Below are positions 59,238-59,787 of a DNA stretch of 64,000 bases, piece by piece. Under the pieces are notes generated by a model, which ran no database searches, was not told the origin of the DNA, and saw only the letters and a program-made list of their open reading frames with translations. The first letter of the stretch is position 1; the number at the start of each line of letters is the position of its first letter. The stretch is taken from the NCBI RefSeq assembly GCF_003334405.1, contig NZ_QOWM01000001.1; one strand, 5' to 3'. Origin of the DNA: Escherichia coli (GTDB lineage: Bacteria; Pseudomonadota; Gammaproteobacteria; Enterobacterales; Enterobacteriaceae). The position numbers and the translations under genes are program-made.

Positions 59238-59534
59238 TTAGCTCCAGTGTAAATGTCTGGTGGCGTCCTGGTTTTGGTTAAGGATACGAATGACGATAAT
59301 TTCCCCTGGTGATTGCAGGAAATAAATGACGTGGCGTTCAAAAGGAAGAACAAAAATACCTTCGCCTAATTCAGGTCTGGGCGTACCTATATTATTGTTA
59401 CTCAGAATCTGGAGAACGTCTGAAAGATGTTCCACATATCTGTCGGCTTGTGGTTCGCCGAAATGGTGATAGCTGTAATACCAGATGCCTTCTAAATCCT
59501 CATTGGCTTTTGGCATGAGTTTAATAATACGCAC
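59238..59534 (-). CDS. ParE/RelE-superfamily type II toxin
   Basis: 98 aa from GTG at 59534 (first ATG is codon 7 at 59516); ParE-like C-terminal HVIYFLQSPGEIIVIRILNQNQD; one nt after antitoxin stop. Confidence 0.75.
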   Translation of the reverse strand: MRIIKLMPKANEDLEGIWYYSYHHFGEPQADRYVEHLSDVLQILSNNNIGTPRPELGEGIFVLPFERHVIYFLQSPGEIIVIRILNQNQDATRHLHWS

Positions 59535-59535
59535 A

Positions 59536-59787
59536 TTATTTCCTTATCCCTGCTTTCACCTTCCGTAAGAACGCGTCCTTTTCCCACGGCTGAGCTTCAC
59601 CACTACTCAACCCTTCTGCGAGCATGTCACGTAACGCTTGCAGGCGAGACTCTGCTTGCTTTTCTCGAAGTAATCGCAGTGACTCACGGATCACTTCGCT
59701 TTGGGTGCGATAGTCGCCGGATTCAATTAAGGACTCGATAAATTCACGCAACTCATCGCCGAGATCAACCGTCATCGTTCTGGCCAT
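59536..59787 (-). CDS. ParD-like (ribbon-helix-helix, COG3609-type) antitoxin
   Basis: ATG at 59787 gives MARTMTVDLGDELREFIESLIESGDYRTQSEVIRESLRLLREKQ; alternative ATG at 59775; immediately upstream of the toxin. Confidence 0.72.
   Translation of the reverse strand: MARTMTVDLGDELREFIESLIESGDYRTQSEVIRESLRLLREKQAESRLQALRDMLAEGLSSGEAQPWEKDAFLRKVKAGIRK

Follow-up and report, generated by a model that had tools for sequence, protein, structure and literature searches.

The closest described relatives of the gene pair analyzed here are PrpT and PrpA, encoded by plasmid pMBL6842 of Pseudoalteromonas rubra and represented by PDB entries 7YCS and 7YCU, to which both proteins have their best match in the PDB. 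PrpT is toxic to Escherichia coli, in which it induces filamentation, and PrpA both neutralizes PrpT and represses its own promoter (PMC7848731), with (G/A)TTTG(T/A)AAT(A/G) as its DNA site (PMC9731233); the PrpT literature examined states no target for the toxin. Among other members of the family, gyrase inhibition by the ParE proteins of RK2, Vibrio cholerae and Mycobacterium tuberculosis is cited in PMC10203498, and action on gyrase is described for V. cholerae VcParE2 (bioRxiv 10.1101/2025.07.24.666505) and M. tuberculosis MtParE1 (PMC10899793). The potency of chromosomal ParE proteins nevertheless spans the range from potent to non-toxic (PMC6813445). Structurally, ParE toxins are told apart from RelE by a long N-terminal α-hairpin and the lack of the RelE C-terminal helix, and in VcParE2 the residue Trp25 is needed for full toxicity, which is lowered by a Phe substitution (bioRxiv 10.1101/2025.07.24.666505).

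Here we examine a 64,000-nucleotide stretch of E. coli DNA (hereafter the window) that carries an ordinary ParD/ParE-type toxin-antitoxin gene pair, which is accessory and already annotated in public genomes, where RefSeq names its products "RelE/ParE family toxin" and "ParD family antitoxin". A literature search by protein accession and by yegP/yegQ in combination with ParE returned no relevant study of this E. coli pair. Its discovery value is small, as it represents a routine accessory module, correctly named by RefSeq, of a family with solved structures and functional studies. What the analysis adds is a polymorphic chromosomal spacer, a likely correction of the antitoxin start, a candidate operator common to plasmid homologues and a stronger constraint on the antitoxin than on the toxin, all of which could be of use in studies of ParE toxicity, of quinolone-tolerance associations and of chromosome-plasmid toxin-antitoxin cross-talk in E. 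coli.

Locus layout and distribution

The pair lies between yegQ/trhP (57774−59135) and yegP (60041−60373 in the RefSeq model), all on the minus strand, and thus where the first-pass annotation had placed it as two adjacent small open reading frames in antitoxin-then-toxin order. The parD-type antitoxin gene (59536−59787, minus strand) starts at an ATG at 59787 (MARTMTVDLGDELREF...) and encodes 83 residues followed by a stop codon at 59536−59538. The parE-type toxin gene (59238−59534, minus strand) follows after the single unpaired base 59535, the 1-nt separation originally described, and encodes 98 residues (MRIIKLMPKANEDL...HVIYFLQSPGEIIVIRILNQNQDATRHLHWS) followed by a stop codon at 59238−59240. 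The GTG at 59534, which had been suggested as the toxin start, is the most upstream start that the frame allows and is preceded, with a 6-nt spacer, by a Shine-Dalgarno-like AAGGA (59541−59545, minus strand; identified by eye from the sequence) within the 3′ end of the antitoxin gene. With profile E-values between 1e-13 and 1e-25, the two reading frames cannot be chance ORFs. The locus was also counted as the third addiction-type module in the window, and this count agrees with the presence of two OrzO-P antitoxin RNAs (18245−18320 and 18855−18928), each paired with a 29-residue ZorO-like ORF.

Alignment of window positions 59100−60100 to the empty site of strain HS delimits an accessory cassette of about 780 bp at 59227−60006 (ends accurate to within a few bases), which contains only the gene pair with its control region and in place of which HS carries about 20 unrelated bases. 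The yegP-yegQ spacer is likewise empty in EDL933 and K-12 MG1655, and measures 146 bp in K-12 and HS; comparison with MG1655 finds nothing but this short yegP-trhP spacer, in agreement with the initial suggestion that K-12 lacks such a pair. With the same RefSeq annotation, the pair occupies the yegP-yegQ site in about a third of complete E. coli genomes (1844 of 5426), and its presence at one and the same site in these genomes, together with its absence from MG1655, identifies it as accessory. More broadly, the spacer is a polymorphic insertion site that is found empty or filled with parDE, with a 5.3-kb four-gene cassette or with IS elements. The earlier designation "accessory island" therefore stands in its first half but not in its second: the ~780-bp segment contains neither an integrase nor a transposase, and the direct or inverted repeats flanking it amount to short, low-identity pairs at the level expected by chance, and thus offer no evidence that it arrived by transposition or by site-specific integration. 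We accordingly reject a mobile genomic island.

Family assignment and plasmid homologues

Profile searches place both reading frames in exactly the ParD and ParE families named in the first-pass annotation. The antitoxin, which had been described as ribbon-helix-helix/ParD-like, matches PF03693 (ParD) with an E-value of 4.7e-19 over residues 1−78 and TIGR02606, a family named after Caulobacter CC2985, with 88.4 bits (curated cut-off 46.2) over residues 4−74 of 83. Its N-terminal ribbon-helix-helix is recognized by RHH_1 (PF01402; residues 6−42, E = 0.0034) and by NikR ribbon-helix-helix models (residues 4−46), and its C-terminal part is predicted to bind the toxin. In a sequence search of the PDB every significant match is a ParD-type antitoxin, led by PrpA (7YCS_D; 61% identity over 77 residues, E = 1.9e-27), with identity reaching 70% to the structurally solved PrpA ribbon-helix-helix domain; PHROGs returns a weak "antitoxin" family only. 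Judged by its sequence, the antitoxin is a ParD of the PF03693/TIGR02606 family (CC2985 or PrpA type).

The toxin, previously described as ParE/RelE-like, aligns to model positions 1−88 of 89 of PF05016 (ParE_toxin; E = 2e-13), but because this family also spans RelE-like toxins, the Pfam match alone cannot separate ParE from RelE, and no NCBIfam model is found at E-values up to 0.01. A sequence search of the PDB yields five significant matches, all of them ParE proteins (PrpT, the best at 2.3e-12, MtParE1, Caulobacter CcParE1, VcParE2 and a Mesorhizobium ParE chain), and retrieves no RelE, YoeB, HigB or YafQ chain at E-values up to 1. The AlphaFold (AF2) model of the toxin is confident and complete (pLDDT 89.8), and features strand β1, a long α1-α2 hairpin spanning residues 8−46 (helices 8−25 and 27−46) and a three-stranded sheet (strands within 60−86), followed by a C-terminal helical turn of four residues rather than a RelE-type helix. 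Ranks 1−23 of the fold search are all ParE-family toxins, with TM-scores of 0.83−0.87 and rmsd values of 1.2−1.7 Å for PrpT, VcParE2, MtParE1 and CcParE1, whereas RelE, YoeB and YafQ appear from rank 24 down with TM-scores of 0.5−0.65. Sequence and predicted fold thus support assignment of the toxin to the ParE rather than the RelE branch. The residue aligned with the hairpin-tip Trp25 of VcParE2 is a Phe (HHFGE; RWG in MtParE1 and CcParE1), so that the toxin lacks the Trp or Tyr otherwise looked for at this position; however, PrpT also carries Phe and is nonetheless toxic, and the poor conservation of the hairpin-tip aromatic across the ParE family indicates that it is not strictly defining. 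BLASTP comparisons with E. coli RelE and with RK2 ParE, both using approximate query sequences, gave no alignment and are uninformative, and PHROGs matches to the toxin are limited to families of unknown function.

A search for homologous proteins recovered close relatives only (34 clusters), with truncated and frameshifted forms among the database variants of the toxin. Beyond E. coli chromosomes, the closest relatives are ParD/ParE pairs carried by plasmids of Salmonella, Klebsiella and Citrobacter (e.g., pC9_001 and pRM11065-1), for which we found no experimental characterization in the literature. These have in common with the E. coli pair an antitoxin starting with MARTM as well as the candidate operator palindrome and promoter arrangement discussed below. 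They differ from it in having genes that overlap by 14 nt rather than being separated by 1 nt, an antitoxin of 88 rather than 83 residues, and a plasmid rather than chromosomal location, with 1817 of 2654 matching records typed as conjugative; the pC9_001 pair adjoins repB and an integrase gene. Two apparent "99% plasmid" matches were set aside as megabase-sized records that are probably chromosomes filed as plasmids. Relative to the plasmid homologues the antitoxin is 87−90% and the toxin 65−66% identical, with dN values of 0.08−0.12 and 0.26, respectively, and synonymous sites are saturated, which shows that the chromosomal copy was not recently acquired from these plasmids. Both genes are under purifying selection, and by these sequence comparisons the antitoxin is under much stronger constraint than the toxin. 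A second E. coli allele (97.6% identical) differs by five non-synonymous and two synonymous changes in the toxin and by none and four in the antitoxin; although the counts are small (Fisher p = 0.06), they hint at a relaxed constraint on the toxin within the species.

Control region, proposed mechanism and alternative readings

A perfect palindrome, TGTAAG-N7-CTTACA (59800−59818), sits 12 nt before the antitoxin start codon and has no other match in the window, for which 0.08 matches would be expected when up to one mismatch is allowed. It is unchanged in the 97.6% allele, its half-sites are kept in the Klebsiella and Salmonella plasmid homologues despite diverged flanks, and it resembles the PrpA site, all of which makes it a candidate operator for ParD. 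Conservation with the plasmid loci, which have the layout GACG-17-TA(A/C)ACT in common, further leads us to propose a candidate σ70 promoter at 59821−59849 on the minus strand (−35 GTGACG at 59844−59849, 17-nt spacer, −10 TACACT at 59821−59826). As it matches 8 of 12 consensus positions, it was missed by a consensus scan with a 9-of-12 threshold, which found no promoter on the minus strand. RefSeq (PGAP) starts the antitoxin at an in-frame ATG further upstream (59830−59832, minus strand), giving a protein of 98 residues. This ATG lacks a Shine-Dalgarno sequence and falls within the spacer of the candidate promoter; the N-terminal extension it would add is missing from the plasmid homologues, which start at the same MARTM, and has a T-to-K change in the other E. 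coli allele, where the 83-residue core has no amino-acid change. The RefSeq start at 59832 is thus probably 15 codons too long, and 59787 is better supported. Upstream of the candidate promoter and still within the cassette, a consensus scan detects a terminator-like hairpin with a T-run (59909−59935, minus strand) that may shield the operon from transcription reading through from yegP. Downstream of the toxin gene, the RNA fold is not significant (z = −1.08) and the hairpins present belong to the spacer common to K-12.

We consider it highly probable that the pair is a chromosomal type II operon of PF03693 ParD and ParE, in the subgroup of PrpA/PrpT, CcParD1/ParE1, MtParDE1 and VcParDE2. By analogy with these systems, both genes would be co-transcribed from the promoter immediately upstream of the antitoxin gene, and a ParD dimer formed through its ribbon-helix-helix domain would bind the palindrome abutting that promoter and repress the operon, while the C-terminal half of ParD would wrap around ParE and block it. 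Degradation of ParD without replacement would then leave free ParE to poison DNA gyrase, and DNA breakage, SOS induction and filamentation would be expected to follow. Co-transcription, operator binding and neutralization are in this model extrapolated to the E. coli pair from its relatives, as are gyrase as the presumed target and the degree of toxicity; growth arrest and its neutralization would be expected from the homologues PrpT/PrpA and Yersinia ParDE only.

A less probable reading, which we regard as unlikely, is that the locus is a domesticated or decaying remnant, in which ParE has little or no toxicity and selection keeps mainly ParD, whose use would lie in DNA-binding regulation or in an "anti-addiction" effect through neutralization or repression of related plasmid-borne ParE/ParD modules. 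The far better preservation of the antitoxin, both relative to the plasmid copies and within E. coli, would fit such a history, as would the Phe at the Trp25-equivalent position, the truncated and frameshifted toxin variants in databases, the existence of non-toxic chromosomal ParE proteins (PMC6813445) and the proximity of the pC9_001 homologue to repB, which belongs to the initiator class that PrpA competes with at origin iterons. Yet the toxin reading frame is unbroken both in this window and in the carrier genomes listed, with dN well under the saturated dS, its fold model is confident and complete, and the within-species counts are too small for significance. As for the narrower proposal that the chromosomal ParD is retained chiefly for an anti-addiction or cross-regulatory role, we judge it improbable; its 87−90% identity to ParD of PrpTA-type plasmid pairs and the common operator half-sites mean that it could neutralize plasmid ParE, repress a plasmid parDE promoter or, like PrpA, bind origin iterons. 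In that case, plasmid establishment, copy number or loss would be altered in the third of E. coli that carries the pair.

Two further readings concern what the module does. Both PF05016 and the RefSeq "RelE/ParE family" name span two activities, and RelE, YoeB and YafQ structures do occur among the weaker fold matches, so that the toxin might be envisaged as a RelE-type, ribosome-dependent mRNA endonuclease with a ribbon-helix-helix antitoxin rather than as a gyrase poison. Such a possibility is nonetheless hardly credible given the exclusively ParE sequence matches, the far higher TM-scores of the ParE-family structures, a model that combines the long ParE α-hairpin with a four-residue C-terminal turn in place of the helix required for RelE activity, and a partner that is a ParD-type (PF03693) antitoxin. 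A primary function in anti-phage abortive infection would have precedent in some type II toxin-antitoxin systems (PMC7167474), and the site is a variable hotspot with other cargo in other strains. We hold this to be very unlikely, however, as PADLOC assigns no family to either protein at E-values up to 0.01, a phage-genome search returned a single 42-residue fragment and no other homologue, no defence genes lie nearby, and the PHROGs matches provide no phage link.

Comparison with known ParDE systems

A chromosomal ParD/ParE operon, the reading that we favor, is closest to PrpT/PrpA in several respects. The E. coli toxin is 33% identical to PrpT and superimposes with a TM-score of 0.87 and an rmsd of 1.2 Å; the toxin and antitoxin measure 98 and 83 residues, compared with 98 and 86 for PrpT and PrpA; the gene order is the same, and the PrpA half-site and the E. 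coli palindrome have a TGTAA core in common. In contrast, the two prp genes share 8 nt instead of being separated by 1 nt, PrpTA is plasmid-borne whereas the E. coli pair is chromosomal with no replicon nearby, and PrpA additionally binds origin iterons and thereby sets plasmid copy number.

CcParD1/ParE1 (3KXE), MtParDE1 (8C24) and VcParD2/ParE2 (7R5A) fall in the same Pfam and NCBIfam families as the E. coli pair; sequence matches of the toxins have E-values between 6e-8 and 7e-7, and those of the antitoxins between 3e-12 and 9e-11. Their toxins share the fold (TM-scores of 0.83−0.85) at just 26−31% identity and carry Trp at the hairpin-tip position, which is Phe in the toxin examined here, and the stoichiometries of the complexes vary among these three systems.

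Finally, RK2 ParDE, ParDE-I of IncI/IncF plasmids and PaaA2-ParE2 of E. coli O157:H7 likewise combine a type II or three-component organization with toxins of the ParE fold, and PaaA2-ParE2 is found among the fold matches of the toxin with a TM-score of about 0.77. The antitoxins of these systems come from other families (PF09386 for RK2 ParD, COG3905 for ParD-I, and PaaA2 together with PaaR2 in O157). ParDE-I was considered as the closest system and rejected because of its COG3905 antitoxin and a toxin only ~15% identical to CcParE1. All three are distant cousins that lie outside the subgroup of the E. coli pair.

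Family assignment of the gene pair between yegQ and yegP

The pair consists of two tandem minus-strand open reading frames, an upstream antitoxin gene encoding 83 residues (ATG at 59787, stop codon 59536−59538; beginning MARTMTVDLGDELREFIESLIESGDYRTQSEVIRESL) and a toxin gene encoding 98 residues (GTG at 59534, stop codon 59238−59240; beginning MRIIKLMPKANEDLEGIWYY and ending HVIYFLQSPGEIIVIRILNQNQDATRHLHWS), with the single base 59535 between them. The GTG is the earliest start available in the toxin frame and is preceded, with a 6-nt spacer, by AAGGA (59541−59545, minus strand). 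Re-reading of the sequence showed the coordinates, gene order, one-nucleotide gap, quoted peptides and GTG start of the first-pass annotation to be correct throughout. The flanking genes, yegQ/trhP (57774−59135) and yegP (60041−60373, RefSeq model; followed by baeR and baeS), lie on the same strand, as does the CyaR small RNA between yegQ and yegR (57606−57691). The window lacks PR-X (ogrK, yegZ), a cryptic prophage remnant of K-12 that comes after cyaR in MG1655 (compare 57445−57605 here).

Profile searches bear out the ParD/RHH and ParE/RelE-like character originally read from the sequence. Residues 1−78 of the antitoxin match Pfam ParD_antitoxin (PF03693, 4.7e-19), with a weak match also to the ribbon-helix-helix family RHH_1, and the protein scores 88.4 bits against the NCBIfam model TIGR02606, 'type II toxin-antitoxin system ParD family antitoxin' (curated cut-off 46.2). 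The toxin covers model positions 1−88 of 89 of Pfam ParE_toxin (PF05016, 2e-13) and matched no NCBIfam model. Since PF05016 takes in RelE-like toxins too, we put the choice between ParE and RelE to separate tests. Among PDB sequences, the toxin has five significant matches, every one a ParE, namely PrpT of Pseudoalteromonas rubra (7YCS, 2.3e-12), M. tuberculosis ParE1 (8C24), Caulobacter ParE1 (3KXE), V. cholerae ParE2 (7R5A) and Mesorhizobium ParE (6X0A); an uncharacterized protein follows in sixth place (E 0.34), and no RelE, YoeB, HigB or YafQ chain appears up to E 1. The antitoxin in turn retrieves the partner chains PrpA (1.9e-27), VcParD2, CcParD1, MtParD1 and Mesorhizobium ParD3. Furthermore, an AlphaFold2 model of the toxin (mean pLDDT 89.8, alignment of 14 sequences) features strand β1 (3−6), a long α-hairpin (8−25, 27−46), three further strands (60−86) and a four-residue C-terminal turn, and in Foldseek searches of the PDB its first 23 matches are all ParE-family toxins (TM-scores of 0.83−0.87 and rmsd of 1.2−1.7 Å for the best four), with RelE, YoeB and YafQ first appearing at rank 24 (TM-scores ~0.5−0.65). 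A long hairpin and a missing C-terminal helix are reported to tell ParE from RelE (bioRxiv 10.1101/2025.07.24.666505). Together, the sequence matches, fold ranking and predicted architecture identify the toxin as a ParE and its partner as a PF03693-type ParD, and make a RelE-type mRNase very unlikely. Both Pfam domains also occur together in a 154-residue protein from the eukaryotic dataset 'eukprot', which is 97% identical to the toxin and most likely represents bacterial contamination or a frameshift-fused ParD-ParE.

A polymorphic insertion site and further variable loci

The yegP-trhP spacer of K-12 MG1655 spans 146 bp and carries no such genes; the HS spacer is the same and EDL933 likewise lacks the pair. 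Alignment to the empty HS site shows that ~780 bp of the window (roughly 59227−60006) replace ~20 unrelated bases. With carriers defined by a match over at least 80% of window 59100−60100, the pair is found in 1844 of 5426 complete E. coli genomes (34%); the matches are overwhelmingly chromosomal, with the same genes on both sides, and those listed share 97.6% to 100% identity. Other occupants of the spacer are a 5.3-kb insert in SF-166, with four genes (PcfJ-domain, DUF1266, DUF4034 and a hypothetical protein), and an IS3 in BKQWHE, while in one parDE carrier an IS1 lies under the match spanning the pair. The yegQ-yegP spacer (window 59136−60040) is thus a polymorphic insertion site that can be empty or hold parDE, the 5.3-kb cassette or IS3. 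The earlier proposal of an accessory island therefore stands as to accessory status, the 'island' being a small cassette with no integrase, transposase or convincing flanking repeats.

The pair had also been counted as the third addiction-type module of the window, and the other two are indeed real. The yehL-yehK gap, which is blank in the RefSeq annotation of an identical genome, holds two tandem zor-orz-like type I toxin-antitoxin loci, each pairing an OrzO-P antitoxin RNA (18245−18320 and 18855−18928, minus strand; Rfam, 99.9 and 88.8 bits) with a 29-residue hydrophobic ZorO-like ORF, MDTLTQKL(T/I)VLIAVLELLVALL(Q/R)LIDLLK (18566−18655 and 19174−19263, plus strand). At 19698−30185 (minus strand), yehI is joined by two paralogues to give three large DUF4132 genes in a row, a variable array that is intact in PC6, a genome matching the window exactly over its first 25 kb, and pseudogenized in strain C311.

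Candidate operator, putative promoter and probable antitoxin start

A perfect palindrome, TGTAAG-N7-CTTACA (59800−59818), lies twelve bases upstream of the antitoxin ATG at 59787 and has no other match across the 64-kb window (0.08 expected at up to one mismatch). It is identical in the 97.6% allele of strain WP4-S18-ESBL-09, and in homologous pairs on Klebsiella aerogenes and Salmonella plasmids, whose flanks have diverged, the half-sites and the distance to the start are kept (TGTAAG-ATTTAAA-CTTACA and -CTTATA). The palindrome resembles the recognition motif of PrpA, quoted in PMC9731233 as (G/A)TTTG(T/A)AAT(A/G), a likeness that fits the 70% identity between the ribbon-helix-helix domains of PrpA and the antitoxin. 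Directly upstream, GTGACG-17 nt-TACACT (59849−59821, minus strand) is a putative promoter, whose layout the plasmid loci retain as TGGACG-17-TAAACT; only 8 of 12 consensus positions match, which explains its absence from the consensus scan output.

RefSeq/PGAP starts the antitoxin 15 codons earlier, at ATG 59832, to give a 98-residue protein whose extension (59788−59832, minus strand) overlaps both the conserved palindrome and the putative promoter. We argue for 59787 because ATG 59832 falls inside the spacer of the putative promoter and has no Shine-Dalgarno sequence, the plasmid homologues start at MARTM with no such N-terminal extension, and the WP4-S18-ESBL-09 allele carries a T-to-K change in the extension next to four synonymous and zero amino-acid changes in the 83-residue core.

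Plasmid relatives, selection and likely mode of action

Searched by tblastn against 72,556 plasmid records, the toxin matched 2654, of which 1817 are typed conjugative and 266 share 60−80% identity with it; among the matches listed in that range are Salmonella, Klebsiella, Citrobacter and E. coli plasmids. Two '99%' matches were set aside; these records are of megabase size and probably contain chromosomal sequence misfiled under plasmids. On the K. aerogenes plasmid carrying the closest homologue (pC9_001, 2148−5091), the pair adjoins genes for a site-specific integrase and the replication initiator RepB, an arrangement matching that of PrpTA, whose antitoxin has a second role in controlling plasmid copy number. 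The antitoxin is 87−90% identical to the plasmid copies, the toxin only 65−66%. By Nei-Gojobori estimates, synonymous sites between chromosomal and plasmid copies are saturated in both genes (pS 0.73−1.0) and dN reaches 0.26 in the toxin gene against 0.08−0.12 in the antitoxin gene. Both genes thus evolve under purifying selection, the chromosome-plasmid split is old, and constraint on the antitoxin is two to three times that on the toxin. For E. coli itself we compared a single divergent allele, that of WP4-S18-ESBL-09 (638−934 versus window 59238−59534 for the toxin), which carries I3T, G59S, G77E, D90Y and T92S plus two silent changes in the toxin; its nonsynonymous-to-synonymous counts, 0/4 in the antitoxin and 5/2 in the toxin (Fisher p = 0.06), are suggestive only, and the five toxin changes may reflect relaxed constraint or attenuation in this lineage.

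This asymmetry is also what might be seen in a domesticated remnant with ParD, rather than ParE, as the more important component, a possible reading that is compatible with a classical module. Cross-talk of the chromosomal ParD with closely related plasmid modules, whether through anti-addiction or even by disturbing plasmid replication as PrpA does, strikes us as improbable. A role in phage defense finds no support, as PADLOC gives no match for the pair and we found neither phage homologues nor neighboring defense genes.

On homology, we read the pair as a classical ParDE module. Of the pairs that have been studied, PrpT/PrpA is the closest: in E. coli, PrpT is toxic and causes filamentation, and PrpA binds it directly, neutralizes it and represses the operon via a 30-bp site that covers the promoter (PMC7848731). 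Among the structural neighbors, VcParE2 (bioRxiv 10.1101/2025.07.24.666505) and MtParE1 (PMC10899793) are reported to inhibit gyrase, and PMC10203498 cites the same activity for RK2 ParE. By analogy, we infer co-transcription, binding, neutralization, target and potency: dimeric ParD would bind the palindrome and so repress the operon, its C-terminal half would wrap around ParE, and loss of ParD would free ParE to poison gyrase. Expectations of potency are tempered by a phenylalanine at the position aligned with VcParE2 Trp25, where a Trp-to-Phe change weakens that toxin (bioRxiv 10.1101/2025.07.24.666505), and by the spread of chromosomal ParE proteins from potent through to non-toxic (PMC6813445); PrpT has the same phenylalanine, yet is toxic.

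Our literature search turned up no study of this E. coli pair, which thus counts as experimentally uncharacterized. RefSeq already gives it these family names in the 1844 complete genomes (WP_001220181.1, 'RelE/ParE family toxin', and WP_001307279.1, 'ParD family antitoxin'). Nor is the system itself of a new type: its subgroup includes several solved structures and functional studies.
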